Origin: an uncultured Gammaproteobacteria bacterium
GTDB lineage: Bacteria; Patescibacteriota; Microgenomatia; UBA10105; UBA927
Assembly (NCBI GenBank): GCA_964621305.1
Contig: CAZUOM010000001.1
Coordinates: 229,448-293,447 of the forward strand
DNA length: 64,000 nt
Direction of reading: 5' to 3'
The number at the start of each line of letters is the position of its first letter. Position 1 is the first letter of the stretch. The notes under the pieces were generated by a model. It searched no databases, was not told where the DNA came from, and saw only the letters and a program-made list of their open reading frames with translations. This document shows positions 9,248 through 42,150 of the stretch, one piece after another. A program made the position numbers and the translations under genes.

Positions 9248-9250
9248 AAA

Positions 9251-17756: not shown

Positions 17757-17868
17757 ATTGTTACATTGCTGCGTTGTCACATTGTTAACGAACAATCCAG
17801 AATGTAGCCTTTCCCTCGCATCATGCGAGGTTTTTTATTTTTAACAATTTAACAATTTAACAATTTTT
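17757..17868. promoter_or_regulatory. AT-rich composite motif copy A (TTGTTACATTGCT...ACATTGTTAA...TTAACAATTTAACAATTTAACAAT) in rplJ upstream region
   Basis: Shares submotifs with 32581..32643 and 42078..42150. Lies between divergent gene starts. Confidence 0.5.
17813..17842 (+). terminator. hairpin cctcgcatcatgcgagg + T6AT5 (rplJ leader attenuator/terminator-like)
   Basis: Near-perfect palindrome followed by ttttttattttt, 30 nt upstream of the rplJ start. Confidence 0.5.
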
Positions 17869-17872
17869 CAAT

Positions 17873-18388
17873 ATGCCAACACAGAAAAAAATCGACACCG
17901 TCACTGATTTAACCGAAAAGCTTGCAAGAGCCAAGTCAGTCATGCTGACTGACTATCGCGGTTTAAAGCATAAACAGATGGAGGAGCTAAGGGGTGCGCT
18001 CAAAAAGGCCAATGCTGACTTTATGGTTGCTAAAAATCGGCTGTTTCTGCGCGCCCTTGGTAGTAAAGCAAAATCACTTAAAGAATATCTTAAGGATACA
18101 ACTGCAATCCTTTTTTCCTATGCAGATGGCGTCGCCCCACTCAAAGAACTCGTTAAATATTTCAAAGCAGCCGGTGTGGGCAAAACCAAAATTGGCCTTG
18201 TGGAAGGCCGGATGCTTTTAGAAGATGACCTCCTGCGATTGTCTACCTTGCCAACCCGTGACGTCTTGCTCTCACAGCTCGCTAGACAACTCAATGCCCC
18301 AATCCAAGGCTTACATTACACGCTCTCGCGGAATGTGAGAAGGCTGTTATACGCCTTGCAACAAATCCAAAAATCAAAATCCAAATGA
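17873..18388 (+). CDS. rplJ: 50S ribosomal protein L10
   Basis: 'KKIDTVTDLTEKLARAKSVMLTDYRGLKHKQMEELR' canonical L10. Confidence 0.85.
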   Translation: MPTQKKIDTVTDLTEKLARAKSVMLTDYRGLKHKQMEELRGALKKANADFMVAKNRLFLRALGSKAKSLKEYLKDTTAILFSYADGVAPLKELVKYFKAAGVGKTKIGLVEGRMLLEDDLLRLSTLPTRDVLLSQLARQLNAPIQGLHYTLSRNVRRLLYALQQIQKSKSK

Positions 18389-18447
18389 CAAACCAAGTCA
18401 TAAGCTCTAAATCCAAATTTGAACTTTTCGATCGGAGGTGATTTTTT

Positions 18448-18840
18448 ATGACCAAATTATCAAAAGATGAATTATTAAAAGCAGTTGAGGAGATGAGCGT
18501 TTTGGAGCTGGCTGATTTCGTGAAAGCCTTGGAGGAAAAATTCGGCGTGAGCGCCCAGCCAGTAGCTGTGCCAGCGACTGTGCCCGCCGAAGCTTCAGCG
18601 AAGGAGGGAGCGAATGCCCCCGAACAGACTGTATTCAACGTCGTTCTTGCGGCACCCGGAGACAACAAAATCGGCGTCATCAAAGCTGTCCGCGAGCTCG
18701 TCCCAACTCTCGGACTCCAGGAGGCAAAGATTCTCGTTGAATCTGCTCCCAAGGACGTCCTAACTGCTGTCAACAAGGCAACAGCCGAGGAGGCAAAAAA
18801 GAAATTGGAAGCAGCGGGTGCAAAAGTGGATCTCAACTAA
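18448..18840 (+). CDS. rplL: 50S ribosomal protein L7/L12
   Basis: '[27 protein letters not shown]' ... '[24 protein letters not shown]'. Good RBS ggaggtga. Confidence 0.9.
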
Positions 18841-18848
18841 GCCATTTC

Positions 18849-18863
18849 CAAGGGGTCCCCTTG
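18849..18863. repeat. REP type 1 palindrome caaggggtccccttg (copy a, just after rplL stop)
   Basis: Near-perfect 15-bp palindrome. Same motif at 19075..19089 and 19611..19625. Confidence 0.8.
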
Positions 18864-18882
18864 ATTTTGCCGTAACAACGGG

Positions 18883-19578
18883 CTATGTGTCTTGACCATC
18901 AATACTCATTGTATAAATAAATTCACTATCTCCCGCCTGGGATACAAAAGATTCATAGGACAAATGCGGATTCTTCCGAGAAAAGTAAGAAAGGATTTCA
19001 GTGGTAGACAGCCACATCGTCTTACGGCGACCAAGATAATCTAAATAAGACGAAGGCTGCTCTGACAACATTTCCAAGGGGACCCCTTGCAAAGCTAATG
19101 GGTTGCGATGAATATAGCGGGATAGATGCTGGAGCTGTTCATCGGTTGTGACCAGAACTGCTTTATAAACACCTTGATACAGCGGCCCTACCCGTTTATT
19201 TTTCCTATTAAAATACATCGTATATCGAGTGCATAACGAGTTCATAAATGTATCGACAGCTGTTCCCTCCTTCTGTTTGACTAAAAGATGAAAATGGTTC
19301 GGCATGAGACAGTAAGCAAAAAGACGTATCGAGCCAAAAAAATTGTTGAGTTGAAGTGATTTGAGAATCTTATGTTTCTCTTTTGAAGAAACGGTCGGGT
19401 CGGCCAAACGACTACGAAGAGACTTTTTGTCTTTCTGTAGAAGATATTCTTTCAGATACGACAAAAATACACTATAGTCTTGGGCATCTTGAAAGATAAT
19501 CCGCTTCTCTACTCCGCGATTGTAAATATGGTAATACCCATTGGTAACGTAAAGCTTTTCAGAGTTTTTTGCAGGCAT
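18883..19578 (-). CDS. REP-associated tyrosine transposase (IS200/IS605-like Y1 HUH transposase, RAYT), paralog 1
   Basis: 'YHIYNRGVEKRIIF' and HUH motif 'MPNHFHLL'. Flanked by REP type 1 palindromes, with one more inside the CDS (encoding ALQGVPLEM). Confidence 0.7.
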   Translation of the reverse strand: MPAKNSEKLYVTNGYYHIYNRGVEKRIIFQDAQDYSVFLSYLKEYLLQKDKKSLRSRLADPTVSSKEKHKILKSLQLNNFFGSIRLFAYCLMPNHFHLLVKQKEGTAVDTFMNSLCTRYTMYFNRKNKRVGPLYQGVYKAVLVTTDEQLQHLSRYIHRNPLALQGVPLEMLSEQPSSYLDYLGRRKTMWLSTTEILSYFSRKNPHLSYESFVSQAGDSEFIYTMSIDGQDT

Positions 19579-19607
19579 ATATATACTTTATCTTGTCCTC
19601 ACAACTT

Positions 19608-19628
19608 TTACAAGGGGTCCCCTTGTAA
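19608..19628. repeat. REP type 1 extended palindrome ttacaaggggtccccttgtaa (copy c)
   Basis: 21-bp palindrome 30 nt upstream of the RAYT-1 start. Confidence 0.8.
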
Positions 19629-19766
19629 GTGCTCCTTTTGATTACCCCTTTGATTCCTCTTGACAAGGTATGAGCATTGATGATACTTTACGATAAATAT
19701 TGATATCACTTGAAATTCGCTCAGGCGAATTCAAGTGTAAACCCCCGCCCAATAGAAGGAGGACCT

Positions 19767-19967
19767 ATGTCCCTCGGTGATGACTGGCCAGGTCTTTTAA
19801 CTGTCCGCGAAGTGGCAAAAATCCTGCGCGTCTCGCCTCTGACGATCAAACGCTGGGGCAAGCGCGGCAAACTGCCGGCTATTCGCATTAACTCCCGCGG
19901 CGACCGCAGGTATAAAAAAGAGGCGGTCATGTGGTTGTTAGGCCTCCAGCAAAAAGGACAAGGGTAA
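19767..19967 (+). CDS. helix-turn-helix DNA-binding protein (excisionase/AlpA/MerR-like)
   Basis: 'LTVREVAKILRVSPLTIKRWGKRGKLPAIRI' is a classic HTH of the excisionase family. Strong RBS aaggagga before ATG 19767. Confidence 0.55.
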   Translation: MSLGDDWPGLLTVREVAKILRVSPLTIKRWGKRGKLPAIRINSRGDRRYKKEAVMWLLGLQQKGQG

Positions 19968-20064
19968 CGCGGTAACCAAAAAAAACACCCTCTCCTGTTA
20001 AGAAATCCCAAATGGGACGGACTAGAAAGTCCGAGGGTGAAATGCAAAATCTGCGGATATCTTA

Positions 20065-20568
20065 TTAGGTGTTCTTGACGATGATGGCGGGCTGCAAGCG
20101 CAATATCTCGCCGACTGTCAGTTTGCCTTGGTCATAAAGCTTGAGAGCTTTCCCTGCCAAGCCAACCTTGGGGTTGGTGAGCAATTGACGTTCAGTCATT
20201 CCATACTGCTCGAGTATACCCGGAACATCTTTCGCGATCTCTTCCGCCATGTCAATCGCGCCCGAAAGCGCCGACTCCATCATGCTTGCCGCGGCATCCG
20301 ATCCGAAGAGATCAAGAGACGCTGCTGGAGTCACAGCGACGGCGGCTTTGACGAAGCCGTTTGCGACACAGTAACGGAGGAACGCGATTTTCGCCTTCAT
20401 GAGGGTCTCTACAGTCGCGGTCTTGTCAAGCAAATCCAAAAGCACTGTTGGAGTCGCTTCTATGTATGGGCGAAGCATTTTTTTCATCGCAAACCGTTGA
20501 GCGGCAAATTCAGGATGCTTTTGGAGGGCATCCCAAACTTCCTTAGGTTGAACGGGTTTTTTGGACAT
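20065..20568 (-). CDS. hypothetical protein
   Basis: ORF with RBS aaggagaaacaaATG at Met-23 (MSKKPVQ). No recognisable motif. Confidence 0.4.
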   Translation of the reverse strand: MSKKPVQPKEVWDALQKHPEFAAQRFAMKKMLRPYIEATPTVLLDLLDKTATVETLMKAKIAFLRYCVANGFVKAAVAVTPAASLDLFGSDAAASMMESALSGAIDMAEEIAKDVPGILEQYGMTERQLLTNPKVGLAGKALKLYDQGKLTVGEILRLQPAIIVKNT

Positions 20569-20608
20569 TTGTTTCTCCTTTTTGTTTAAGTGTGTCCGCT
20601 GCTGATAG

Positions 20609-21214
20609 CTACCAGCCGTGGGTGATGCGTTCAAATTGCCGATTTACTCCTGGCAATGGTCGAGGATCAGGACGCTTTTCCCAGCCTGTCTCCGTTTTCT
20701 GTTCAAACCAGCGATGGATTTCAAAAATGTTGTCGCTATCGCTGTAGTACGGCAGAAGGGAATCGGCGCTTGGGGATTGATTGCCTTTTGGGACGGGATA
20801 GAGTCTGAGAAGTTCCTCAAGATCTGTACCTTCCCAAAGAACTTTTGGCTTTCCCGGATCTTGACCTATTGCGTTGATTGTCTCAAGAACCCGGTACGTG
20901 GTCGGCGGTGGCCACTTGGCAATGATTCCGAGGGCTCGTTGATAGTGTGTGTCATATCCCCAGGGACACGCCTTGGGCCGTCCCATTGAGTCGTAAAGTC
21001 TTTCAAAAACGACCTTATCACCCTCTCGGGGATCTCGCAGGTGTTTATTGTTAAGCACCGCCCCGATAAATTGTGGTCCACGCTTTCCTTTGACGGCGTT
21101 GATTATCTGACCGTCGTTGAAGTGAAACCACAGCTGTTCCTCGGCATCATCGTCAGGAACAATGAACCCGAACCGTTTCTGCGTATTAAACCACTTGACT
21201 CTTCCGCTTTCCAT
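20609..21214 (-). CDS. cold-shock-domain protein with C-terminal extension
   Basis: 'GRVKWFNTQKRFGFIVPDDDAEEQLWFHF' resembles the CspA CSD (GxVKWFNxxKGFGFI). About 130-aa unknown C-terminal region. Start is at Met-8 with RBS. Confidence 0.6.
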   Translation of the reverse strand: MESGRVKWFNTQKRFGFIVPDDDAEEQLWFHFNDGQIINAVKGKRGPQFIGAVLNNKHLRDPREGDKVVFERLYDSMGRPKACPWGYDTHYQRALGIIAKWPPPTTYRVLETINAIGQDPGKPKVLWEGTDLEELLRLYPVPKGNQSPSADSLLPYYSDSDNIFEIHRWFEQKTETGWEKRPDPRPLPGVNRQFERITHGW

Positions 21215-21452
21215 ATCACTCACTCCTTCCCTCAAGGCTCACCTACAATAGGTGGCTAACTGCCTACCAAGGCCGATAAACAGATAGCCACCTACAAAGT
21301 GAGTTTTCCGCAGATTGTAAACGTGCAAAGAAAAAAATCCACCAACAAGGCCCAGCAAAAGCGCTGATTGGTGACTTATAATCAAGGAGTCTATCAGAAG
21401 AAGAAGAAGAAGTCAAGATACTATAAGATATAAAAGGGATCATTATGATAAA

Positions 21453-21875
21453 ATGCCTTGCGGCTTCCTGCGCAGCATAGAAAATTTTATGACACAGCCT
21501 GAAACAACCGAGCAACTGGTGGTTTCCGTTCAAATTTTACGGGATATATTAGAGGCGGGATCTTCCGATTCGCCTACGGAATTTCGGTCTCTTCGCGGCA
21601 AACCGCTGACACAAAAAGATCTTGTCACGGCAATCCGCACGGCATTTCAGTACGAAAAAATAAAACTATCTCACGGTCGCGATAATAGAATTATTGTGGT
21701 TGGGGTCACCCGGGTAAAAGACCGGGACATTCCCACAGTCCTCATGGATTCCGAATTTGTGAATCACTCTACCCCAGAAGGACTCAAAGCGGCTATTGAA
21801 AACGGCATAATCAATCCTAGGAAAATCATCCGTAGCTTATATAGTTTGGTAGTTAAAGAACTGGTTGTTGAATAA
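21453..21875 (+). CDS. hypothetical protein
   Basis: 140-aa ORF, no motif. Start uncertain. Confidence 0.3.
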   Translation: MPCGFLRSIENFMTQPETTEQLVVSVQILRDILEAGSSDSPTEFRSLRGKPLTQKDLVTAIRTAFQYEKIKLSHGRDNRIIVVGVTRVKDRDIPTVLMDSEFVNHSTPEGLKAAIENGIINPRKIIRSLYSLVVKELVVE

Positions 21876-21880
21876 TGGTT

Positions 21881-22387
21881 TTATTTTGGCAATCCAATGG
21901 TAGACAGGGACGCATTGGTATACTCGCTCTGACCCGAAACTTCGCGACCAAACCAGTCCGGCGGAATAAAATCGTGTGCGTCATTAAGAGAGGCAAATTC
22001 GACTTCAACTGTTGCAAGCTCCGCCAGATTCCCTGCATAAATATCCAATTGCGCCGTGGCTCCCGATTCAATTGGTATCATATAGCGGCATTTCGTGAGG
22101 CGCTTGCCTTCTGTCAGAGGCCAGAGTTTTTCAAACTGATCACGGGACAATATAACTTCCGTTTCCGGGTGTTCTATGCCGGTTCCGGACTTTACCGTCA
22201 AAAACCACATCTGATGTTCCCCTTCTTTTACATGGCGAAGCCTAAAAACGGACTCCTGGGAAATTGCGATATAGCCCTGGGATATTTCCTGATAAACAAC
22301 AGCATCAAGTCCCTCTGGTATATCCCGAACTAAAAATTTCCGCTCGATTTCTACGTTACTCATACGATTGAATTCTATAGATTTCAT
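21881..22387 (-). CDS. CYTH-domain protein (CyaB/thiamine-triphosphatase-like triphosphate tunnel metalloenzyme)
   Basis: N-terminal 'EIERKFLV' is the CYTH signature. 168 aa. Confidence 0.75.
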   Translation of the reverse strand: MKSIEFNRMSNVEIERKFLVRDIPEGLDAVVYQEISQGYIAISQESVFRLRHVKEGEHQMWFLTVKSGTGIEHPETEVILSRDQFEKLWPLTEGKRLTKCRYMIPIESGATAQLDIYAGNLAELATVEVEFASLNDAHDFIPPDWFGREVSGQSEYTNASLSTIGLPK

Positions 22388-22540
22388 AAATACAAATTAT
22401 ACACCAATATACATCCAATACATAAAAAAAGACCTCTCCTTCCCACTCCACATTTTTCAGACCAACGAATGAGCGCTTTGGCTCACTGTAGAATTCTGAA
22501 AGTTTTGAGTAGATCTGAAAGAGAGGTCTTGAATGGGAGC

Positions 22541-22765
22541 CTAGGCTTTTTTAGCCTGCTCCAAGAGTTCTTGCCCGCGGGGCGAGGATTTCGAAACCCA
22601 CTTTTTGTTCTCCTCGTCCCAGATCGTATTCATCGCCTGTGCCACGTAGGCGGGTGAATTGGCAAGAGCATCAATCCTTGCTTTTTCCCGCAACTGCGCC
22701 GCGCCTGGGTGAATTGCCAAAGCCGCATCCGCAATTGCCTTTCTTAACGTATTCCGTAAACTCAT
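22541..22765 (-). CDS. small hypothetical protein
   Basis: 74 aa with RBS caggaggtaaggaaaATG. Confidence 0.35.
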   Translation of the reverse strand: MSLRNTLRKAIADAALAIHPGAAQLREKARIDALANSPAYVAQAMNTIWDEENKKWVSKSSPRGQELLEQAKKA

Positions 22766-22956
22766 TTTCCTTACCTCCTGAAAAAAGATTGTAGCTCAGG
22801 GCTACTTCGCAAATACAAAAGTTGCACCCACGAAGTAACCCTGAGCCTGAATGGAGGAAGCAAATTCCATCTCCTGTCAACGAGCGAAAAAAACAATACC
22901 GCAGCTTGGAGCGGTACGTTTTAGGTCCTAACTGTAGCACAAAAATGCTTTAATTG

Positions 22957-24618
22957 TCAAATTCCTATGGGCCTATCCGGCAGAGATTCTATCGCATGCG
23001 CTAGCGACGGCGCTTTTGTAAACCATCGAGCGGCAAGGGCACGCTTGGTTTCTCCAACAAGCGCGCTCAACTTCTCCCTCCCCAGCGCATCAACTACCGC
23101 CTGAAAATAGCGCACTTCCGGTGTTTTTTGCAGCTCGGCAACAAGTTCGTCTGCGTTGACTGGTTTGGCGACATGCGGCCCCATAGCCATAGTAAGATAC
23201 GCTGCCACCGTATCGGCGTAGTGTTCCTCTTCAAACTGGAGAGCCGCCCGGATTAATTCCTCCTGATCACCTTCCGAAAGCCTTCCTGTATAATCGCCAT
23301 CAACCACAAGTTTCATACAGTAAAATCCCGTACGGCGCGCCACGGCATCAATTGCCTGCAACGGATTTTTATACTTGATCCCCTGCATAATCATGCCTCT
23401 GTATAACTCCACAGCTTGTCCGGCAATCGGATCAAGACGGCTTAATATGTCCACCAACCGCCCAATCCGCTCCTCGACAAGATAGGACAAAAGCATTTCG
23501 CTAAACTCGTCACTAAGAAACCTGCTAAATTTCCCCACCCAAGGAAGAAGAAAGTACCGCTCGCCCATGTCAAACATTGACTTCCTAGAATCATTCCATA
23601 ATAACTGCGGCAAACCATCTATGTCTATGCAACTTTTGTCCGCTACACATTGCAAAACAGTACTTTGAAATGAGTTTCCTTTTAGGGAAGGATCAAGCGA
23701 AACCATAGTTTTTATCCCCCGAGCGTGCGCCTCCCACCTGGCTGACAACAGCCGCGGTAATGTAGAAACATGAACGAGCTGTAAAACTCGCGGATACCGT
23801 ACAAAAAGGCTCATCGCGTGAGACAATTCATGAGCAACAATAAACGTAGTGATAAACTGTTTCTGTTCCGGAATCGTCGCCTGTTCATAATACCTTAAGA
23901 TTTCGTCCTCCCGATCGACATGAATTTCCCGTAGAGGAGAATTATAACCAGCAGCCCGATCAGCAGTCACTTCTCCCAAAACGATGTCAACCGGCACAGG
24001 AGAAACGCGGCGTACATCGGAAATCCCCCGGCGAAGCCGAGGTTGAGGAGGTCCATCGACCGGATCTTTATCCCGGACATTAGGCTCCTGAAACTTATTG
24101 CCAACTTTATTCCAAAGATTGAGCACAGCATCAATCGGATAAGCTTTCGCTGTTTTGTCTTTTGATAATTTTGTCACCTCCATCACTGCCTGATTGAAAA
24201 TCGTCCGCGCTGACTGAGGTGTTAATTTGTGCGTTTGGTCATTAGAGATAGTCTGGCCAATTAAATCTATAGTTCCTTTCAATATCTTCAGATCAACAAT
24301 CGCTGGAAGATAGAGTTCTCTTTGTGGCAGATCAACCACAAAGGTAAAATCTGGATGAGGAAATAATTTGCTCATGTCCGGAAAACCAGACATGCTGGCG
24401 ACAAACGCTTCACAAGATGCATAAGCTGACTGGATATTTGTCCACAAGCGCTCAAACTCCTCCCTGTCCACTCTGCTAAACCACTGGCCTATACCATACC
24501 ACACTGCCTGTGCAGCTTCTTGGACCTGTTTTGAAGCTGAAGCGGCTGTCCCAACAGCAATGCCGCCGCCTACTGCTGCACTCATTTTAAGAAATTCCCG
24601 ACGGTTCAGATCGTCCAT
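22957..24618 (-). CDS. Tat-signal secreted protein with HExxH (putative zinc metalloprotease)
   Basis: N-terminal 'RREFLKMSAAVGGGIAVGTAASA' twin-arginine signal. Internal 'VAHELSHAMS' HExxH. 553 aa. Confidence 0.5.
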   Translation of the reverse strand: MDDLNRREFLKMSAAVGGGIAVGTAASASKQVQEAAQAVWYGIGQWFSRVDREEFERLWTNIQSAYASCEAFVASMSGFPDMSKLFPHPDFTFVVDLPQRELYLPAIVDLKILKGTIDLIGQTISNDQTHKLTPQSARTIFNQAVMEVTKLSKDKTAKAYPIDAVLNLWNKVGNKFQEPNVRDKDPVDGPPQPRLRRGISDVRRVSPVPVDIVLGEVTADRAAGYNSPLREIHVDREDEILRYYEQATIPEQKQFITTFIVAHELSHAMSLFVRYPRVLQLVHVSTLPRLLSARWEAHARGIKTMVSLDPSLKGNSFQSTVLQCVADKSCIDIDGLPQLLWNDSRKSMFDMGERYFLLPWVGKFSRFLSDEFSEMLLSYLVEERIGRLVDILSRLDPIAGQAVELYRGMIMQGIKYKNPLQAIDAVARRTGFYCMKLVVDGDYTGRLSEGDQEELIRAALQFEEEHYADTVAAYLTMAMGPHVAKPVNADELVAELQKTPEVRYFQAVVDALGREKLSALVGETKRALAARWFTKAPSLAHAIESLPDRPIGI

Positions 24619-31977: not shown

Positions 31978-32580
31978 TTAGAGCATTTTTAGGCGGGGAA
32001 TGATGGCGGGGTCCGATATAATTAGTCTGGTCGCACCGGCATCCACAATCATCTTGGCTGAACTTTCGCTGATCCCTTCTTCTGCAGCAATGGTCAAATC
32101 CGGATATGCCTGATGGATGGCGCGGATTTTTTCGACATTTTCCGGCTGGAGCGTGAGGCCCCTGGCGCCCATCTCTGCCATCATCACTAGCACTACGTCG
32201 ATGGTTTCCAAAAACGGCTCGACTGCCTCGACTTCTGTGGCTCCGTCGATGGCCAGACCCACCTCAACGCTCTCTTTTTCTGTCTCATCAAGAAACAGCC
32301 GCGGGTCGTTGGCTTCGACGTGTGCTATCAGGCGTTTGAACCCGGCATCAACCAGCATCCGGATGTATTTTTCGGGGCTAGCGACCATAAGGTGTGCTTC
32401 GAAACTGACTGGTTTGACTAATTGGCCAAATTTGGCTAAGTCCAAAAATGTCTCCGCCGGCACCAGTGAGCCATCGGCGATATCAATCTGCAACCAGTCA
32501 ACGTAGGGAGCAACAATAGCAACTTTGCGCTCAATTGCGTCCCAGTCTTTTTCAAAAATAGTAGGAATGATGCCGATCAT
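31978..32580 (-). CDS. rpe: ribulose-phosphate 3-epimerase
   Basis: 'IIPTIFEKDWDAIE...WLQIDIADGSLVP...HLMV...VLVMMAEMGARGL' follows the Rpe TIM-barrel pattern (IxPSIL..D, DVMDGxFVP, HLMV, MSVxPGFGGQ-like). Confidence 0.7.
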   Translation of the reverse strand: MIGIIPTIFEKDWDAIERKVAIVAPYVDWLQIDIADGSLVPAETFLDLAKFGQLVKPVSFEAHLMVASPEKYIRMLVDAGFKRLIAHVEANDPRLFLDETEKESVEVGLAIDGATEVEAVEPFLETIDVVLVMMAEMGARGLTLQPENVEKIRAIHQAYPDLTIAAEEGISESSAKMIVDAGATRLIISDPAIIPRLKML

Positions 32581-32643
32581 TGTTAAACTGCTACATTGCT
32601 AAATTGTTAAAAAACAATGTAACCATGTAACAATGTAACAATT
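32581..32643. promoter_or_regulatory. AT-rich composite motif copy B (ctgctacattgctaaattgttaaaaaacaatgtaaccatgtaacaatgtaacaat) upstream of rpe
   Basis: Shares TACATTGCT / ATTGTTAA / AACAATGTAACAAT submotifs with 17757..17868 and 42078..42150. Confidence 0.5.
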
Positions 32644-32958
32644 TTATTTGTAGCTCTGCAAGGAGGAAGAAAGGGAGGCGTAGGACTCATCGAGTTTTTT
32701 GAAGGTCGCGTCATCAAGGAACCCCCTGCCCCAGGCAACAGCCAGATGTGTGCGGGTTTTGGCGACCTCGCCAACGGCTGCCTCAAGAAGCTCTTTAGTC
32801 TTGCTGCTGTCTTTCCTGGTTAGTCCATCGGCAACTGTTGCCGCGACTTTTTCGCTAGAGGCAACAAGATCGCTATCCTCATCAGGGAGGGCTTCCTGTA
32901 AATCCATCAGCGCCACGTAGGCCGCCTGCCAAAGCTTGTGTTCGTGAAAGTTGACCAT
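32644..32958 (-). CDS. four-helix-bundle protein (23S rRNA-intervening-sequence-protein-like)
   Basis: 'HKLWQAAYVALMDL' and overall helical 104-aa architecture typical of the family common in CPR genomes. Weak. Confidence 0.45.
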   Translation of the reverse strand: MVNFHEHKLWQAAYVALMDLQEALPDEDSDLVASSEKVAATVADGLTRKDSSKTKELLEAAVGEVAKTRTHLAVAWGRGFLDDATFKKLDESYASLSSSLQSYK

Positions 32959-34344: not shown

Positions 34345-35652
34345 CTATTTCGCTTCCCCGTTGCCGTTTGGTTTTTTATAAGCTTTCTTATATAGAAAAT
34401 CTATGAGAAGATCATGGTAAAAGGCTGACATTTTTTCCCCAACCGCATCCCATGTAAAAGTATGCGCGACTCTCTCGATGCCGTTTTCGCGCATCATTTT
34501 TTTTACCTGCGGATGACGAAGGATAAAAAGAAGCTTATCGGCAAATGCACTAGCGTCGCGGGCGGGAACCAAAAATCCGGTTTTGCCGTCGCGGATCGTA
34601 TATAAAAGCCCGCCAACCCTTGATGCAACTATGGGCGTACCGCAGGCCATCGATTCAAGCGGCACGAGCCCGAATGGCTCGTAGTAGGACGGCACACACG
34701 TCACGTCGGCGCTCGAGTAGTAATACGGAAGCTCCTCGGGTGAAACCCCGCCGATGAAGCGGACCACATCGCCGATACCTTCTTTTTCAACAATATCAGT
34801 CAGCCGTTTTCGTTCTTCTGAAACGATCGGCAATTCTTTTTTCCATCTGTTTTTCGGCTCGCCACCGGAGACGATACAACGAAAGTTTTTGCGATTGTCA
34901 CCCATTTTTTGCGCCATAATGGCAACGGCGGCAAGGAGCGTGTCGATCCCCTTTCTCCGTTCGATGCGACCGATATAAAGGACGACGTCTTGATTTTGCG
35001 GCCAGCGCAAAACTCTTCTGGCTATCGTGAGCGGAATAGGAAAAAACCTTTTGAGATTAACCCCTTCTCCGATGACGACAATTTTTTTGGACGATACGGC
35101 ATAAAGGCCCATCAGCTCGTCCTTCATCTGGGGACACGTAGCGATGACGCGATGCAGCCGGTCGAGCACCTCTTTTTCGTGGGTGATCCGGTCCGAAGGC
35201 GACGGGTCGTTGCTGCCAAGAGCCTGGTGTTTGACCATGCCCAAGGTATGGAATGTGTTGACCGCCGGAATTCCCAACTTCGCCGCCGCTTCAACGGCAG
35301 CATAGGCTGAATTATAGTAGTTGCCGTGAATCAGAAGGTAGTCGAGATTGTTTTTTTCTTTGAAAGCCAAAAAGCTTTCGACATATTTGGGCATGAGGGG
35401 AAACAATTCTTCTTTCGGAACAAACTTTACCGGCCCAGCGGGTATACGCACAACTCGAACCGTATCGGATACTTTGGCTATCTGTGCCGTCTTGTGAAAG
35501 GACCAACGCACAAAAACATCAACTGTCCATCCTAGACGTCCGAGTGCACGGGAAACTTCGAGTATGTAGACGTTCTCGCCTCCTGCTTCGTGCCCGCCAA
35601 GGGGAGACAGGGGGTCGGCATTGTCGGTAAAAAAAGCAATGCGCTTAGTCAC
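34345..35652 (-). CDS. glycosyltransferase family 4
   Basis: 'EPFGLVPLESMACGTPIVASRVGG' GT4 (E-X7-E) motif. Confidence 0.8.
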   Translation of the reverse strand: MTKRIAFFTDNADPLSPLGGHEAGGENVYILEVSRALGRLGWTVDVFVRWSFHKTAQIAKVSDTVRVVRIPAGPVKFVPKEELFPLMPKYVESFLAFKEKNNLDYLLIHGNYYNSAYAAVEAAAKLGIPAVNTFHTLGMVKHQALGSNDPSPSDRITHEKEVLDRLHRVIATCPQMKDELMGLYAVSSKKIVVIGEGVNLKRFFPIPLTIARRVLRWPQNQDVVLYIGRIERRKGIDTLLAAVAIMAQKMGDNRKNFRCIVSGGEPKNRWKKELPIVSEERKRLTDIVEKEGIGDVVRFIGGVSPEELPYYYSSADVTCVPSYYEPFGLVPLESMACGTPIVASRVGGLLYTIRDGKTGFLVPARDASAFADKLLFILRHPQVKKMMRENGIERVAHTFTWDAVGEKMSAFYHDLLIDFLYKKAYKKPNGNGEAK

Positions 35653-35725
35653 CTAGCCATGGTATCACATAAAGAGTTAATTCTGTCAAGCGGCGAACCC
35701 GCGCATGGTCTGAATTTTGTAAACG

Positions 35726-36871
35726 CTATAAAGAGGTTTTTAGTCCCAATATTTGCTCGTACACTCTTTCATATCCAGCTACCATCTTCTCGATCGTAAA
35801 ATAATCTTCAATTCGTTTTCTGCATGCCAAACGCATCGCACGGTATTGACTATTCGGCATCTCATAGATACGTCTAATCGCCTCTTTCATGCCTTCCATG
35901 CCTGTTCTTTTCACTACCCAGTCACCGCGAATATCCTCAACTGATGGGTTGAGAATATATCCGGTCACCCCATCGACTACAATTTCCGGCACAGACCCAC
36001 GGGCAAAAGCGATAACCGGCGTCCCGCATGCCATGGCCTCAATCATCACCAGCCCAAACGGCTCCTCCCATTGGAGCGGAAACAGATAGGCTTTAGCCTG
36101 CCCATAACGGAAAAATAAATCATTCTGCGAAAGCATTCCACCGTGCTGGACAAGATTCCCGCCTAAATAAGGAACTATCTGAACCCAATATGCATCGCCA
36201 TGGCCTTGGTGATGCGTTCCGAAAATTTGAAGGGGCATTCCGGTTGCGTGAGCCAGTTGTGCCGCCTGTAATATTCCTTTGTCCGGGGTGATGCGACCGA
36301 CAATCAGAAGAAAACCACCGGCTCCATCACCCGCTGGATAAAGTTTAGGGTCAACGCCATGATAGACCGTACCGGCATAGCGTAGATTGGGCAAATTTTT
36401 TCGTTGTGCATTGCTAATTGATACATACCATTGCGTATCTGGAATTTTTTCAAGTATTCGCTTTTTTATGCCTACAAGCGGACTATGAAGAGTAGCCACG
36501 GTAGGCGTTGATACAAATGATGAATAATACGCACTACGTGTATCAAAAGATGAATGAATTATATCAAATATCTGATCGCGTGCATCAAGATAGCACCGAC
36601 GAATCAACAAGTGCTCCATTTCAAAATGGTTCGCAAGACCTATTTCTTGATCATGTATACTTGCTACCTCACTAACAGAAATCAATCTTCCCGTTGTTTT
36701 ACTATCGCCCGATGCGTACAGCTTCACATCATGCCCATGTGCAACAAGGCCATCCGTAATCTTTGACATGATCCGCTCGCTGGCACCGGCAAATCCCGGT
36801 GGAAGCCTAGTGGGATCAGGAGGAAGGGGAAACAAATTTGAAGCAAGTATTGCAATACGTAATTTTCTCAT
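35726..36871 (-). CDS. glycosyltransferase family 4
   Basis: 'EEPFGLVMIEAMACGTPVIAFARGSVPEIV'. Confidence 0.8.
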   Translation of the reverse strand: MRKLRIAILASNLFPLPPDPTRLPPGFAGASERIMSKITDGLVAHGHDVKLYASGDSKTTGRLISVSEVASIHDQEIGLANHFEMEHLLIRRCYLDARDQIFDIIHSSFDTRSAYYSSFVSTPTVATLHSPLVGIKKRILEKIPDTQWYVSISNAQRKNLPNLRYAGTVYHGVDPKLYPAGDGAGGFLLIVGRITPDKGILQAAQLAHATGMPLQIFGTHHQGHGDAYWVQIVPYLGGNLVQHGGMLSQNDLFFRYGQAKAYLFPLQWEEPFGLVMIEAMACGTPVIAFARGSVPEIVVDGVTGYILNPSVEDIRGDWVVKRTGMEGMKEAIRRIYEMPNSQYRAMRLACRKRIEDYFTIEKMVAGYERVYEQILGLKTSL

Positions 36872-37932
36872 GCCTTTTTATCACCTAATATGCGTTCATA
36901 TACTTTTAAATATCCATCAGCCATCTTTTCTTTCGAAAATCGCTCTTCCACCCATCGACGACATTTCAAGCGAGCTAAGCCTGATATCTGTGGTACATAA
37001 GAAGCTAACTCCTCAACTGTCTTACCCAAAAATCCAGTTTCTCCATGACGAATTATTTCTGGAAAAGATCCTCGGCTAACACCAATGACCGGAGTCCCGC
37101 AGGCCATAGCCTCTACAGCGTATAGACCAAATGGTTCATCCCATTGAATCGGCGCAAGCAAGGCATATGCTTGCTGCAGATATTTTACTTTAGTTTCAAG
37201 ATCGAGTTCGCCCAGCAAAACAATCTGAGATCCGTCAATCATTGGCTTACACGATTCAAAATACTGCCAATCTGCAGAATCTACTTGACGATCGATTTCT
37301 TTAGTTGCCAACAACAGTCGACGGCCAGCTTTTTTAGCTATCTCTATTGCCTCTTTTGCTCCTTTATCTGGAGAAAATCGTGCAAGAAAAAGCAGGTAAT
37401 CATCGTGAACATCTAAATATGAATATAAAGATAAATCGATACCGTTATAAACTGTTGCTTTATACTGTAGCTTTGGTGCGCCCTTTCGTTGATTATTCGA
37501 AATAGAAACATATTCCAGATCTGAAGAAGACTGATAACCAATCTGTTGATGTTGCAAGTTTGTAGGCATGTGTAATGTCGTTATGAGCGGGTTATGAATA
37601 AATTGATGGAAAAGAAGAAGGCGCCAACCGTTGTGGTTATGAACTATATCAAATGCACGATTTTGTAATTCAGAAAGTGTCAAACTAATTCCATAATACT
37701 TTGCTCCTTCTCGGCTAGACAAATGGGTACTATATGGTGCTGTTGATCGCAAAGCACTCGGGAAAATTGACACTAATTTGCACGGCACGTTAGAATCGCC
37801 CGTTCCAAATAAAGTCACGTCGTGACCACGGGAAACAAGCTCTGTTATGAGGTTGTAAATGACAACCTCTGTCCCTCCGTATTTTTTCGGCGGCACGGAT
37901 TCTTCAAACGGAGCAAGCATGGCAATCTTCAT
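36868..37932 (-). CDS. glycosyltransferase family 4
   Basis: 'DEPFGLYAVEAMACGTPVIGVSRGSFPEII'. Overlaps the downstream GT4 by 4 nt. Confidence 0.8.
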   Translation of the reverse strand: MKIAMLAPFEESVPPKKYGGTEVVIYNLITELVSRGHDVTLFGTGDSNVPCKLVSIFPSALRSTAPYSTHLSSREGAKYYGISLTLSELQNRAFDIVHNHNGWRLLLFHQFIHNPLITTLHMPTNLQHQQIGYQSSSDLEYVSISNNQRKGAPKLQYKATVYNGIDLSLYSYLDVHDDYLLFLARFSPDKGAKEAIEIAKKAGRRLLLATKEIDRQVDSADWQYFESCKPMIDGSQIVLLGELDLETKVKYLQQAYALLAPIQWDEPFGLYAVEAMACGTPVIGVSRGSFPEIIRHGETGFLGKTVEELASYVPQISGLARLKCRRWVEERFSKEKMADGYLKVYERILGDKKA

Positions 37933-38048
37933 ATTGATTAGTATGAATCAGTTTCTGCCTGAATACAAGGAGGAATAAAACTTTTTGCAACAAGAAGGCT
38001 CCTTACGGTGCCCTTGATAGACATCCGTATCTTCTTTATGATTACTCT

Positions 38049-38282
38049 ATGCCAACTGGTGAAATATCACCAACTACAATTTTATTCGGGGCAGCCAAGC
38101 CTCCTCGCCTTGATACAATAAAACTTGCTACTGTGATTAGCCAATCTGCAGCAACTGTGTCTGGACCAAGACAAAATGAAAAAGTAAGTGGGATTATTGA
38201 GAAAATCCTGCGAGATTCGGACCCTGAAATACAACAATTTGCATTAAATTATCAACAATTTCTCGGTCTGTTTAAAGACTAG
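38049..38282 (+). CDS. small hypothetical protein
   Basis: 77-aa ORF only. Confidence 0.2.
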   Translation: MPTGEISPTTILFGAAKPPRLDTIKLATVISQSAATVSGPRQNEKVSGIIEKILRDSDPEIQQFALNYQQFLGLFKD

Positions 38283-38312
38283 GGAGCACGAAGAGAAACA
38301 CCTGACACGGTC

Positions 38313-38930
38313 ATGTTCAGCCAGGAATTTGCCCGTTTTATCTATCGAGGCCTTCGTGTTGGAGACGAAGCTCCATTTATGTCTGATTGTTTGTCTCAAC
38401 TGCGTGACATATCTAGTGCACTCAAAAGAACACGCTTTGGATCAGCGCTTGGCAATGGAATGATGAGAGCAATAGCTGGCGCCCAGACCCATGCTGGACT
38501 TATGAATCTATTAACAGACGCTGGATACCAGATTGTTGTTCCGAAGCTCAGCGATAAAGCCGAATGCGTTCAGTGGGACTGGAACATTGGTTGCGACTTT
38601 GCAGCATATAAACAAGAGAAACTGTATCTTATTGACACTAAAAATGCCCTCTTCGACGCAGAACAAGCTGATAAATCTTTTCTAGAAGTAGCAAGCGTGG
38701 TCGAGGTGACTAGAGGAAAGTACAACATGCGTCTTGTATTATCAGTTCGTCACGATATATTGAAGTTGCTCAAAGCGCCAGATGAAACACACATGAACCA
38801 TCTTATTGTTACTGTTCCATCAGTCGGGATTATTAAGGGGTCAATAGCCACCATTGAACCAACCGCAGCAAGTGATATACTCAGGCAATTAAATTCTATA
38901 AAAGGAAAAACGTATGCCGCAGACAATTGA
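38313..38930 (+). CDS. hypothetical protein
   Basis: 205-aa ORF, no motif. Confidence 0.4.
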   Translation: MFSQEFARFIYRGLRVGDEAPFMSDCLSQLRDISSALKRTRFGSALGNGMMRAIAGAQTHAGLMNLLTDAGYQIVVPKLSDKAECVQWDWNIGCDFAAYKQEKLYLIDTKNALFDAEQADKSFLEVASVVEVTRGKYNMRLVLSVRHDILKLLKAPDETHMNHLIVTVPSVGIIKGSIATIEPTAASDILRQLNSIKGKTYAADN

Positions 38931-39097
38931 AGATAGCATTAAGCACTATAAATTGAGATATTTTGATCAACTGAAGGGATTACCTCCGTATGAGATGGTG
39001 AAGAAAACGATTCTCATTTTCTGGTATGGCCTAACAGGAAATCGCCTTCTAGAAAGCAAACAGTCAGTCCCGCCTTCCCCGGCCACGACAAAAAAAT

Positions 39098-39133
39098 AAG
39101 GCCCCCTAGCCTGAAAAGGCGAGGCCTTTTCTA
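39098..39133. terminator. hairpin aaggcc...ggcctt with A-tract/T-tract flanks (bidirectional terminator-like)
   Basis: aaaaaaataaggccccctagcctgaaaaggcgaggccttttct. Confidence 0.4.
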
Positions 39134-39173
39134 GCTAACTTTATGTATCAAGATATTATTTGTATGACCCTGG

Positions 39174-39890
39174 ATGTATTTTGATATATATTGTTATATA
39201 ATTCCTGTCGCAATGAAAGAATTTCCAACTAACCCAGAGGCATTACCCAAACAAGTGTCACTTCCGGTCAGACGACCGGATGACTTTGGAAGCGTAAACT
39301 GTTTTATTGATGTCTGCACGACAGGACTCCTGTCAATTGATCCTCAACTTCAGATGTCTTCTCACTCGTTTGCGGACTTAATGCCCCAACCTTATGAAAA
39401 ATATTGCAGTTGGTTCTATGCAGAACATGTGGTTAATCAAGTTATTGCCCAGGTTGAAACCCGAATTTATTACAAAGAAGAGTCAGCCTGGCCTATTGGG
39501 CCAAAATTTAACACTGCCATACAACGCAAAATCGCCTCTGGAAACTATATCCATGTGGGAGTTGACGATAAGGAATGGCTCAAAAGAGTCTACAATGTCG
39601 ATATCTCGACACGACAAACGCACGCAGTCCTTATCACCGGATATAGACAGTCTGCTCCAACAGGAGAGCTTCTATTTGAAGTACAGGATTCCCTGTCGAA
39701 AAACCAACCGGGACCAATGGGCGTATCAAGTACGATTCTTTTCCGATCGGTCCTCGCTTCTATGTCTCTCATCCATCCGAATATCGATGGTAGATTGTTC
39801 AGGTGTCCTTATGGAGTATTTTATTGGACAAAATCAGCCACCCAACCTGGTACCCGCTTCTGGCATTCAGAGAGTTTCCCCCGTGGGTAA
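39174..39890 (+). CDS. hypothetical protein
   Basis: 238-aa ORF. Start is probably MKEFPTNPE (about 39213). Overlaps the next ORF in another frame. Confidence 0.35.
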   Translation: MYFDIYCYIIPVAMKEFPTNPEALPKQVSLPVRRPDDFGSVNCFIDVCTTGLLSIDPQLQMSSHSFADLMPQPYEKYCSWFYAEHVVNQVIAQVETRIYYKEESAWPIGPKFNTAIQRKIASGNYIHVGVDDKEWLKRVYNVDISTRQTHAVLITGYRQSAPTGELLFEVQDSLSKNQPGPMGVSSTILFRSVLASMSLIHPNIDGRLFRCPYGVFYWTKSATQPGTRFWHSESFPRG

Positions 39891-40267
39891 CCTTAAACAC
39901 GGATAGCAGCGACTATTTTGACGACGTGCTCGTATCGCTCGTGGGGAACTTCCCCCCAAAGAGCGTCTTGGGACTCCTGGACCGCCTCCGTCGTGAGCCG
40001 AGCAAACTGGACTGGGGAACGATCCTGTACGCACGTGACCTGCTCTTTATCGACGACAACCGATACGATTCGGCCGTTCCGGCCCATGCATTTTTTCAGG
40101 GAATAAAACTGACGAAGCATGAGTGGGTAGCAAATGATTTACTGGAGTTTCGGCGGCGAGGCCTTTCCAGGCTAATGTTCGTGCATCATGAGCCAGAGGA
40201 ATTTGAGGAGTGCCAGCTGCCGCTTCCAACGCCGGGGCTGCCTGCTAAGCCGCCAGAGCCACTCTAG
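39803..40267 (+). CDS. hypothetical protein (possibly the frameshifted continuation of the previous ORF)
   Basis: 154-aa ORF in a different frame overlapping 39174..39890 by 88 nt. Confidence 0.25.
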   Translation: MSLWSILLDKISHPTWYPLLAFREFPPWVTLNTDSSDYFDDVLVSLVGNFPPKSVLGLLDRLRREPSKLDWGTILYARDLLFIDDNRYDSAVPAHAFFQGIKLTKHEWVANDLLEFRRRGLSRLMFVHHEPEEFEECQLPLPTPGLPAKPPEPL

Positions 40268-40894
40268 GCCGATAGCCCTGACGAAGGAAGGGGCACGGGG
40301 GATAATGCCGGCGATCATATCGAACGCCCCGCCGACGGACATGAGCACAATTTGAGATTTGAGATTTGAAATTTGAAATTGGCGCGCGAGGCAGATACAG
40401 AAGTGCTCTTGTTTCGGTGCACCGAGGCCAACGAAAACCAAACGAGTCTTGGTGACAGCGAGTTTTTGAGTAATTTCCTCGATAGTTTTCCCTTCAGGCA
40501 CATCCGCCCACCCTGCGAGGCCAGGAAACCGCCTCTGTAAGCACTCGAGAGCTTTAAGTGCTACACCTCCTCCACCGCCTATAAGTGCTATTGAGAAGCC
40601 CCGCCTGGAAGCTAGCTCAACCAGCGACTCCAAAAGATCAATTCCAGCGATTTTTTCGCAGCCGACGGTGAGCGCAAGTCCGATACCGTCGGGGATTGCT
40701 ATATCGGCCCGATTGAGGACTTTTCGGAAATGAAAATCTGTCTGTGCCAAAACCACCTGCTCGGGATTTGGAGTGGCGATAACCAAGGGCTTGAGTGCGG
40801 GAACGTTTAAGTACTTTTCTATATACTCTAAGATAGTTATCTTAGAATTCAACGTTATGCAAATTCCGAAGATTTTTTTTGATATTAATCTCAT
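40172..40894 (-). CDS. WecB/TagA/CpsF-family glycosyltransferase (N-acetylmannosaminyltransferase-like)
   Basis: 'FDMIAGIIPRAPSFVRAIGLEWLWRLSRQPRRWKR' is the conserved WecG/TagA C-terminal motif. Start at Met-12. Confidence 0.75.
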   Translation of the reverse strand: MRLISKKIFGICITLNSKITILEYIEKYLNVPALKPLVIATPNPEQVVLAQTDFHFRKVLNRADIAIPDGIGLALTVGCEKIAGIDLLESLVELASRRGFSIALIGGGGGVALKALECLQRRFPGLAGWADVPEGKTIEEITQKLAVTKTRLVFVGLGAPKQEHFCICLARQFQISNLKSQIVLMSVGGAFDMIAGIIPRAPSFVRAIGLEWLWRLSRQPRRWKRQLALLKFLWLMMHEH

Positions 40895-41031
40895 AGTATA
40901 ATATACTATCTTAATACACCATTCCAAAGTTCATCGAGATACTTGAAATGAACACAATTTTTCGAAGCTGTTTTACAGGTTACTTCTTATTAGCTACTTC
41001 TAATAAATAGAACTATAAGATTTGTCTTACT

Positions 41032-42063
41032 TCACTTACCAATACTTCGTTTGTAAAGCTCTATGTTCTCCAATGCCACGCCGGTGCCGCGGACCACACA
41101 GAGTAGAGCCTCATCAGCAACATGACAAGGGACACCGGTCGCTTGTGTCATGAGCCGGTCGAAGTTATATAGAAGTGACGTTCCGCCAGCCATGACAATC
41201 CCTTTATCAATAATGTCTGCTGCTAGCTCTGGCGGCGTATCACCAAGGACCGCCTTAACTGCTGCAATGATCTGTTGAAGTACTGGACTGATCGCTTCGC
41301 TGACTTCTCTTTGCGTCAGTACTGCCATCCGCGGCAGACCGGTGATCGCATCTCGGCCGCGGACCTCTATGGAGTCACGGGAGTCGGGCGATTGTTTATC
41401 TGTTTTTGGCAGGCCCGATGGGAGAGCGTCTCCTATCGTCGTTTTGATTGTCTCGGCCATACGCTCGCCTATAATGAGGTTGTATTGTTTCTTGACAAAG
41501 TTAGCTATAGCTTCATCTAGCTTGTTTCCCGCAACACGCGCGCTTTTGTGTACCACCACGCCACCTAAAGAAATAACTGCCGCCTCCGTCGACCCTCCGC
41601 CAATATCGACAATCATGTGGCCGGAGGCTTGTGCGACTGGAATTTTGGCACCGATTGCTGCTGCAAGAGGCTCTTCGATGAGAAAAGCCATCTTGGCTCC
41701 AGCAGCAAGTGTTGCATCCAATACGGCCCGCCGTTCAACCTGAGAAGCCCCGGATGGTACGCAAACCATGACTTCTGGCTTGAATATCCTATTTCTCCCA
41801 ACAGCTTTATCCATAAAATATCCAAGCATAGCCTCAGTTACTACGTAATCAGCTATTACTCCGTCTCGCAGTGGTCGTGTGACCATAATGTTGCCGGGGG
41901 TGCGACCAAGCATCTCTTTGGCTTCGCTTCCTACTGCCACGACCCTATTATCATCTACAGTCACGGCTACAACGGTCGGCTCATTAAGGACAACGCCGAT
42001 GCCCGCCAACCAGACGAGTGAATTGGCTGTACCTAGATCTATGCCGATTCGTTTGGTAAACAT
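41032..42063 (-). CDS. mreB: rod shape-determining protein MreB
   Basis: 'RIGIDLGTANSLVW', 'DIGGGSTE' actin-fold ATPase motifs, 343 aa. Confidence 0.9.
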   Translation of the reverse strand: MFTKRIGIDLGTANSLVWLAGIGVVLNEPTVVAVTVDDNRVVAVGSEAKEMLGRTPGNIMVTRPLRDGVIADYVVTEAMLGYFMDKAVGRNRIFKPEVMVCVPSGASQVERRAVLDATLAAGAKMAFLIEEPLAAAIGAKIPVAQASGHMIVDIGGGSTEAAVISLGGVVVHKSARVAGNKLDEAIANFVKKQYNLIIGERMAETIKTTIGDALPSGLPKTDKQSPDSRDSIEVRGRDAITGLPRMAVLTQREVSEAISPVLQQIIAAVKAVLGDTPPELAADIIDKGIVMAGGTSLLYNFDRLMTQATGVPCHVADEALLCVVRGTGVALENIELYKRSIGK

Positions 42064-42077
42064 ACATTCGGAGGATA

Positions 42078-42150
42078 ATTGTTACATTGCTACATGGCTA
42101 CATTGTTAAAAGTCAAAGCAATTTAACAATGTAACAATTTAACAATAATC
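42078..42150. promoter_or_regulatory. AT-rich composite motif copy C (ttgttacattgctacatggctacattgttaaaag...aacaatgtaacaatttaacaat) between divergent mreB and PEGA gene
   Basis: Same submotifs as copies A and B. Confidence 0.5.

Follow-up and report, generated by a model that had tools for sequence, protein, structure and literature searches.

Inverted arrays of an 8-bp unit beside rplJ, rpe and mreB are probably gene-less copies of an intervening-sequence-like element

We analyzed a window of 64,000 nucleotides (contig CAZUOM010000001.1 of assembly GCA_964621305.1, positions 229,448 to 293,447) in which AT-rich repeats occur beside the genes rplJ, rpe and mreB. The three loci, designated R1, R2 and R3, respectively, are probably gene-less copies of a widespread intervening-sequence-like element, whose full-length relatives carry a gene of the PF05635 family between inverted arrays of the same unit. 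They most likely represent a selfish hairpin element rather than sites where a regulator binds. Of the two readings offered in the original prediction, that of a small dispersed intergenic repeat proved essentially right, while that of a transcription-factor or nucleoid-protein binding array at three promoters was not supported.

Architecture of the three loci

R1, R2 and R3 are each composed of tandem 8-bp units arranged in two inverted arms: four ATTGYTAM units, a spacer, and then three to four KTAACAAT units (Table 1). The order of the arms is the same at all three loci (ATTG-type first, CAAT-type second), and Tandem Repeats Finder assigned a period of 8 to every arm. The arm pairs contain 4+3(+1), 4+4, and 4+4 units in R1, R2 and R3, with spacers of 52, 0, and 5 bp, and the interiors are unrelated to one another. 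The submotifs that had been reported for the three clusters were confirmed at their positions, but the regular inverted structure of 8-bp units had gone unseen. The heptamer TAACAAT occurs 19 times in the window compared to 9.0 expected, a number reached in 0 of 100 shuffles, and 14 of the 19 occurrences fall in the three clusters. Phased arrays of at least 3 units number 5, compared to an average of 0.005 (never more than 1) in 200 dinucleotide-preserving shuffles, so the motif does not occur at random frequency in the window.

RNA folds were predicted for each locus. On the minus strand, R2 folds with -24.9 kcal/mol (z score of -5.6) and R3 with -23.2 kcal/mol (z score of -5.9); the predicted stems join terminal inverted repeats over at least two helical turns, as in known intervening sequences. 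In the predicted plus-strand fold of R1, the proximal degenerate units pair with the left arm. A G-U bias of the minus strand was seen in all three copies. A reading of the arrays as small open reading frames (ORFs) was rejected: a period of 8 nt does not keep the frame, and TAA in the common units places stops in all frames.

Table 1. Features at and near the repeat loci of the window
Feature	Position	Strand	Units and remarks
R1 left arm	17757-17788	+	four units, ATTGTTAC ATTGCTGC GTTGTCAC ATTGTTAA
R1 proximal degenerate inverted units	17789-17812	+	CGAACAAT CCAGAATG TAGCCTTT
Terminator hairpin of the putative L10 leader, followed by a T run	17814-17830	+	between the R1 arms; not part of the repeat
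R1 right arm	17841-17872	+	TTAACAAT (three times) and TTTTCAAT; abuts the rplJ ATG at 17873
R2 left arm	32579-32610	+	ATTGTTAA ACTGCTAC ATTGCTAA ATTGTTAA; rpe start codon (minus strand, A at 32580) within the first unit
R2 right arm	32611-32642	+	AAAACAAT GTAACCAT GTAACAAT GTAACAAT; 1 nt away from the stop codon (32644-32646) of the minus-strand gene upstream
Distant PF05635/TIGR02436 homologue (four-helix-bundle, intervening-sequence protein)	32644-32958	-	adjoins R2
R3 left arm	42078-42109	+	ATTGTTAC ATTGCTAC ATGGCTAC ATTGTTAA; 14 nt from the mreB start (42063, minus strand)
R3 right arm	42115-42146	+	AAAGCAAT TTAACAAT GTAACAAT TTAACAAT; just upstream of the PEGA promoter-like site
Second 8-mer family, rplK-rplA spacer	14694-14797	+	AGTAGCTT (eight times), then about four inverted units (nCTAAGCn)

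Distribution of the unit

A left-arm pattern that fits all three copies (22 specified bases; chance expectation of ~0.07 in 596 Gb) matched at least 119 loci. Hosts among the matches listed include many classes of Patescibacteria, many Bacteroidota, Ignavibacteriales, Chlorobiota and Aminicenantes, as well as metagenome-assembled genomes (MAGs) labelled Gammaproteobacteria and isolates of Chryseobacterium. Three matches (L002, L007, and L037) lie inside a conserved coding sequence and are chance hits.

Together with the window, the pattern-picked loci contain 243 arrays of at least 3 units; since these loci were selected with a pattern derived from the window, their unit statistics are biased. 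Adjacent arrays form pairs with the ATTG-type arm first in 44 cases and in the opposite order in 8 (spacers of -4 to 115 bp), and many loci have several separate array sites within 8 kb. Single arrays adjoin the nearest gene end and always read 5'-WTARCAAT-3' toward that gene, as expected if the arms bracket a whole spacer. By crude gene calls, 109 arrays lie between tandem, 16 between divergent, and 11 between convergent genes, compared to background counts of 534, 96, and 93. The original prediction had stated that all three clusters sit directly upstream of gene starts. This is true of each of them, but it does not discriminate between readings, because intergenic regions in these compact genomes are very short and arrays abut genes on both sides.

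Several lineages carry variants of the arrangement. The fabG-fabF spacer of four Chryseobacterium species (L024, L056, L100, and L109) has kept a pair of the opposite order, CAAT-type arm first, in which the ATTGTTACATTGCTAGATTGATACATTGTTAA arm hardly differs between the four species and the other arm varies in unit number. Gene-less copies of Peribacteria/Peregrinibacteria (L014, L057, L090, L107, L119, and L120) share a conserved spacer ending in YGCTTGCGAACAAT, so that the interior as well as the arms is conserved within this lineage. Five Bacteroidota MAGs (L019, L036, L052, L077, and L111) contain runaway arrays with 20 to 45 units of the ATTGYTAM-type 8-mer; some of these are at contig ends or beside N runs, and such arrays may break assemblies.

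The PF05635 cassette

Array pairs that are 255 to 620 bp apart enclose an ORF of ~125 amino acids. A profile of this ORF gave nine strong matches in the fetched loci, and 9/9 were flanked by arrays, mostly within ~30 bp and at most 145 bp from the gene. The layout of the cassette is (ATTGYTAW)n, a short linker, and an ORF running from ATG to KLTI and the stop, in which the final codons TTA ACA ATn TAA are at the same time the first unit of the right arm. The ORFs score 65 to 77 bits against PF05635 (gathering score of 33.8) and 75 to 81 bits against TIGR02436. A profile search of the PDB related the protein to the four-helix-bundle structures 2RLD and 2GSC, each with five chains per entry; a search of the PDB with the single sequence gave no match. 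Cassette proteins of Bacteroidota, Chlorobiota, and Falkowbacteria are 65 to 69% identical, which points to horizontal transfer.

A second set of loci was collected from a metagenome scan by protein alignment alone (279 relatives, 80 loci kept). Both arms were present by strict criteria in 53 of these 80 loci, with ATTG-first order on both sides, and at least one arm was present in 74/80; the remaining loci with flanks carry variant units such as ATGGTTAT or ATTGTTTC. Exactly 4 units, the mode, were counted in 40/75 left arms and 41/75 right arms. The arms of a cassette form a more stable duplex with each other (-37.4 kcal/mol) than with the arms of other cassettes (-31.8 kcal/mol; permutation P value of <0.0002), and the own partner was the best partner in 8/75 cassettes. 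The gene is co-oriented with both neighbors at 50 of 57 loci and antisense to both at 2. The 20 cassette loci checked gave no match to rRNA or any other Rfam family. Carriage by phages was considered and rejected, as no relative of the cassette was found among IMG/VR viral contigs. The results for the protein-selected set indicate that the cassette is a defined element, sense-oriented inside ordinary transcription units.

The window loci share the unit, the arm order, and the arm length with the arms of the PF05635 cassettes. No PF05635/TIGR02436 gene is present between the arms of R1, R2 or R3, hence their description as gene-less copies. The cassette protein is not the only one of its kind with such flanks: further genes of the PF05635 type in the fetched loci lie between inverted tandem arrays built from units of their own, which include ACGTTGAA, AATTACGA, ATTTTAG, and GGGTTGG, and a PF05635-type gene of the relative L121 (see below) is flanked by the 9-mers AATCCGACC and GGTCGGATT.

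Genomic context and relatives

Pfam matches confirmed the assignments of the flanking genes as rplJ, rpe, mreB, and PEGA and likewise identified rplL. R1 is located inside a match to the L10 leader (Rfam RF00557) at 17663-17845 (40.2 bits compared to a gathering score of 44; E value of 3.6e-5), which was the sole yield of a permissive Rfam scan; at the gathering threshold, the whole window gave two tRNAs and nothing else, with no rRNA. The aptamer sequence of this leader is conserved in the relative L207. The left arm of R1 aligns as an insertion in the linker between aptamer and terminator hairpin, and the right arm lies between the T run of the terminator and the rplJ ATG. R2 fills the entire 63-bp gap between the stop of a minus-strand gene and the start of rpe, within an operon; the rpe start is correctly placed, because the N-terminus MIGIIPTIFEKDWD matches relatives. 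R3 lies between mreB and the PEGA-domain gene. A promoter-like TTAGCA-18-TATAAT at 42152-42181 is just outside R3 and stops 6 nt short of the PEGA ATG. A TATTAT on the minus strand (42182-42177) would put all of R3 in the mreB 5' untranslated region (UTR). Given these positions in a putative L10 leader, an operon spacer, and an mreB leader, all three copies are probably transcribed as parts of mRNAs.

Two observations concern translation of the neighboring genes. No obvious Shine-Dalgarno sequence precedes rplJ, rpe, mreB or rplA. The PEGA-domain gene likewise has none, and its TATAAT 6 nt before the ATG fits a leaderless mRNA (42152-42190).

The window belongs to a Gottesmanbacteria-like genome of the Candidate Phyla Radiation. 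Its MreB is 84 to 85% identical to proteins of Candidatus Gottesmanbacteria (Patescibacteria), and two syntenic, Gottesmanbacteria-like relatives were compared, L121 (GCA_016194575.1) and L124 (GCA_040960175.1). Both keep the PEGA-mreB and IVP-like-rpe gene pairs, with a PEGA-mreB spacer of about 49 bp and either an ATGA overlap or a 19-bp gap before rpe. No array is present at the orthologous mreB and rpe upstream regions, from which we infer that R2 and R3 are gains in the lineage of the window. The -10 sequence of mreB is TATAAT or TATGAT in the relatives and reads TGTGGT at that site in the window. In the L10 leader of L207, an inverted array pair occupies the position of the R1 linker, but its units belong to a GYTTAGWA family and not to ATTGYTAM. 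The linker may be either a favored tolerant site or a place where a hairpin is useful to the leader.

The three copies occupy noncoding sites that tolerate insertions: the linker within the putative L10 leader, the gap that separates a stop codon from the rpe start, and the mreB leader. In the proposed model, the two arms, once transcribed, would pair into an imperfect, A-U-rich stem of ~25 to 32 bp. This stem would cover the rpe AUG at R2, would lie in the mreB leader at R3, and would stand between the L10 aptamer and the terminator at R1. As in the intervening sequences of 23S rRNA, it could be a substrate of RNase III, whose cut would remove or separate the insertion at the RNA level and cause little polar damage.

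Evaluation of the model and of alternative explanations

Several results weigh against this interpretation. The profile of the cassette protein gave nothing at an E value of ≤1e-3 over the 64-kb window, which thus has no gene of the cassette type; the distant homologue adjoining R2 is not of the cassette subfamily and keeps the same place in the array-free relatives. R1 is irregular, with a terminator between its arms. Among gene-less copies, the arms are no more complementary to their own partners than to others (0.828 versus 0.821; P value of 0.11), the variable T/C position lacks compensation between arms, and the sense strand folded better than the antisense strand in 13 cases and worse in 12. 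There is accordingly no statistical support for a selected hairpin in gene-less copies, and, given the 13-to-12 split, the minus-strand G-U bias of the window copies may be a local feature. Even in full cassettes the preference for sense folding was marginal (46 versus 29; P value of 0.055). No target-site duplication was detected in 40 elements, nor at R2 and R3 when these were compared with the empty sites of relatives. The RNase III step is drawn by analogy, and the statistics of the pattern-picked loci carry the bias described above. A related arrangement, in which a 5' arm before a gene pairs with a 3' arm beyond that gene, was rejected, since no partner arrays follow rplL, PEGA or mreB.

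An operator or nucleoid-protein array, for example, one through which the Crp-like helix-turn-helix (HTH) protein encoded at 16934-17503 co-regulates rplJ, rpe, and mreB, is highly improbable. All three clusters adjoin gene starts, repeated units are typical of cooperative binding, and the Crp-type gene is 250 bp from R1. However, R2 is an intra-operon spacer and not a promoter, R1 is part of the putative rplJ leader RNA, and the orthologous mreB and rpe upstream regions of L121 and L124 have no arrays. Positions behind stop codons and between convergent genes hold members of the family at background frequency. The sites are neither confined to promoters nor conserved at orthologous ones. In addition, arrays of the ATTGYTAM type flank the PF05635 gene in several phyla, and, from B-DNA geometry, 8-bp phasing would set successive units on different faces of the helix. 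A role as a promoter or translation-initiation module is also unlikely: the WTARCAAT arm could be an extended -10-like run (TGTAACAAT compared to TGnTATAAT), or, as has been suggested for TAACTGA heptamers (PMC4679880), it could be an A/U-rich leader free of structure that brings ribosomes to genes in which a Shine-Dalgarno sequence is missing. The distance from array to start codon peaks at -2, where CAATG supplies the ATG (9/98 cases, rpe included), arrays abut start codons, rplJ, rpe and mreB have no Shine-Dalgarno sequence, the PEGA gene is apparently leaderless, and the ancestral -10 of mreB reads TGTGGT in the window. Against this, the opposite arm is found just after stop codons, as are both arms in convergent regions; in full cassettes, the 3' end of the PF05635 gene and the WTARCAAT arm overlap. 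The unit placed as the -10 of rpe reads AGCAGT, a poor match, and a scan for consensus promoters found none inside the arrays pointing at rpe or mreB.

Neutral simple-sequence repeats that arose by slippage in AT-rich spacers, with a convergent likeness to arrays elsewhere and no relation to the PF05635 cassettes, are a quite unlikely source of R1 to R3. The arrays do consist of head-to-tail intergenic units within the 5- to 11-nt range, with period 8, of the long simple-sequence repeats that bacteria are known to carry (Mrazek 2007, as cited in PMC4679880). Moreover, tandem arrays of several unrelated 7- to 9-nt units are common in the window and its relatives, and some Bacteroidota loci have the runaway arrays described above. 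Against this, one degenerate unit, one arm order (44 versus 8), and a four-unit length recur across phyla and around a single protein subfamily, arm length is sharply peaked and not broad, arms co-vary between cassettes, and an array pair is kept at the fabG-fabF spacer of four Chryseobacterium species. The inverted pairing, fixed length, and gene linkage of the arrays exceed the descriptive class of simple-sequence repeats. A classical MITE (miniature inverted-repeat transposable element), that is, a nonautonomous DNA transposon with terminal inverted repeats mobilized by a transposase encoded elsewhere, is very improbable. Such an element would share the inverted terminal arms, the small size, the intergenic location, the several copies per genome, and the presence or absence between relatives. 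The check for target-site duplications suggested in the original prediction was made with a negative outcome, the longest flank match being 3.95 for an element's own flanks versus 3.70 for mismatched flanks in the 40 elements. R1, R2 and R3 have interiors that are unrelated to one another, with no homologous transposase-derived core, the sole gene found between arms is PF05635 and not a transposase, and a search of IMG/VR viral contigs gave no such cassette. Gene-less copies of the intervening-sequence-like element thus remain our preferred explanation for R1, R2 and R3.

Other repeats in the window and in related genomes

A second 8-mer family forms an inverted pair in the rplK-rplA spacer (Table 1), with the inverted units TCTAAGCT TCTAAATA ACTAAGCA TCTAAACC, and units of this family also form a hairpin in the L10 leader of L207 (2898-2973). 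Arrays of 7-nt units (CTGAYGR / ATCAGYC) are found at 49550-49591 (also delimited as 49562-49588) and 51401-51461; the array at 51405-51461 is itself an inverted pair and is 86% complementary to that at 49550-49591, 1.8 kb away. No PF05635-like gene was found near or between these 7-mer arrays (49.5 to 51.5 kb). In L124, inverted pairs of 7-nt arrays (CGAAATT/TTTCGGA and GGACTTA/GTCTTAC) at 1641-1749, 6028-6076, and 8120-8203 sit between the genes of a glycosyltransferase cluster.

GC-rich palindromes of two dispersed families occur at gene ends, TAGCTTCGCAAGGAGAGTCCTTGCGAAGCTA at 45994-46024, 46535-46565, 46741-46771, and 49639-49669 and CATTTCCAAGGGGTCCCCTTG at 18843-18863, 19069-19089, and 19605-19625; both look like repetitive extragenic palindromic (REP)-like or terminator hairpins. 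The first 11 kb contains three pairs of longer direct repeats, 4384-4526 / 9099-9241 (143 nt, 95%), 6740-6782 / 9250-9292 (43 nt, 95%), and 6803-6896 / 10865-10958 (94 nt, 78%), which suggest that gene ends were duplicated or that the segment is rearranged. The rplK-rplA and rplJ-rplL pairs are ~2.2 kb apart (14275-18840) and are separated by minus-strand ORFs that include the Crp-type HTH match, which is weak. Ribosomal protein L1 (14810-15673) has 287 amino acids and a Pfam match split in two, which suggests an insertion relative to ordinary L1.

Comparison with known systems

Short tandem repeats of a similar kind have been described. TAACTGA heptamers are common to Beggiatoaceae, Cyanobacteria, and Bacteroidetes, often lie just before start codons, have no known function, and were described as almost exclusively direct repeats (PMC4679880). 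The arrays reported here resemble these, the cyanobacterial STRR repeats, and the repeats of Mrazek in being tandem intergenic units of 7 to 8 nt, often before starts that lack a Shine-Dalgarno sequence, ribosomal protein genes included; as with TAACTGA, one unit is found in distant phyla. They differ from TAACTGA repeats in coming as inverted pairs whose arm order is fixed and whose preferred number of units is four, and in being linked to a protein gene. In the literature, which was covered incompletely, we found no description of these cassettes outside rRNA or of the ATTGYTAW unit; searches with the unit strings returned PCR primers only, and those on octamer tandem repeats did not describe the family.

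The protein Avd is a pentameric four-helix bundle that binds nucleic acids. Avd is an accessory protein of diversity-generating retroelements, and PF05635 is homologous to it (PMC10053308). The structural relatives 2RLD and 2GSC likewise have five chains per entry. Unlike in those retroelements, no reverse transcriptase and no pair of template and variable repeats was found beside the cassettes in the loci read or in the window.

A parallel in overall organization is provided by proteobacterial REP sequences and REPINs, in which many gene-less palindromic copies are scattered intergenically, some of them in operon spacers. In REPtrons, a few copies of the RAYT gene are flanked by the REP repeat in inverted orientation. 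The elements here similarly combine scattered gene-less copies, a few repeat-flanked genes, and sites in operon spacers. In contrast, the flanked gene encodes a four-helix-bundle PF05635/TIGR02436 protein and not a Y1 (IS200/IS605-type) transposase, the arms are tandem 8-mer arrays and not a single imperfect palindrome, and an action of the PF05635 protein on the repeats is hypothetical. It is conceivable, if speculative, that PF05635 proteins and their flanking short-unit arrays form a self-propagating system comparable to REPIN-RAYT. In such a system, each subfamily would recognize its own 7- to 9-nt unit in RNA or DNA (candidates are ATTGYTAW here, the 9-mer in L121, and GACAGAT in Coxiella), and, across Patescibacteria and Bacteroidota, the protein would drive or stabilize the spread of four-unit hairpins without a gene into mRNA leaders and spacers within operons. 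If true, this would at last give a function to the "rRNA intervening-sequence protein."

The closest resemblance is to the intervening sequences (IVSs) of 23S rRNA. In Coxiella burnetii, the IVS has been described as a 428-nt selfish element with an ORF for S23p, a PF05635-type protein; the inverted repeats at its ends pair into a 28-bp stem that is cut by RNase III, and the ORF is preceded by 2 or 3 tandem GACAGAT heptamers, the number of which varies among strains (PMC4990558). IVSs with S23p/PF05635 ORFs are present in the 23S rRNA of C. burnetii, Leptospira, Xanthomonas, and Brucella, and present or past mobility of such elements has been proposed by earlier authors (PMC4990558). ORFs of the PF05635 family also occur in rRNA insertions of bacteria of the Candidate Phyla Radiation (CPR) (PMC11270868). 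Full-length relatives of the window copies likewise hold a PF05635 gene between terminal inverted repeats able to form a long stem, have short tandem repeats directly before the ORF, are embedded in the sense orientation in a host transcript, and show a patchy taxonomic distribution that suggests horizontal transfer. They differ in being placed between protein-coding genes or in mRNA leaders; no location in helix 25 or 45 of a 23S rRNA gene was seen, as no rRNA was found in the window or in the 20 cassette loci checked. Further differences are that each of the two arms is a regular array of four 8-nt units and that the ORF is missing from the window copies, whether through loss or from the outset. 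Cleavage by RNase III, shown for Coxiella, would apply here by analogy.

One PF05635 subfamily travels as a compact cassette with inverted four-unit arrays, inserted in the sense orientation in operons of distant phyla, and gene-less arms populate leaders and spacers of the essential genes rplJ, rpe, and mreB in a CPR bacterium. This suggests a cheap lifestyle for a selfish gene in compact operons, namely, removal at the RNA level, and provides concrete sequences for work on RNase III processing and protein-repeat binding, e.g., (AUUGUUAA)4 and (UUAACAAU)4. For annotation, it explains a class of AT-rich intergenic repeats that can be mistaken for operators or promoters. The elements fit the known intervening-sequence-like kind but occur here outside rRNA and mostly without a gene, which extends the concept of the intervening sequence from rRNA to mRNA.

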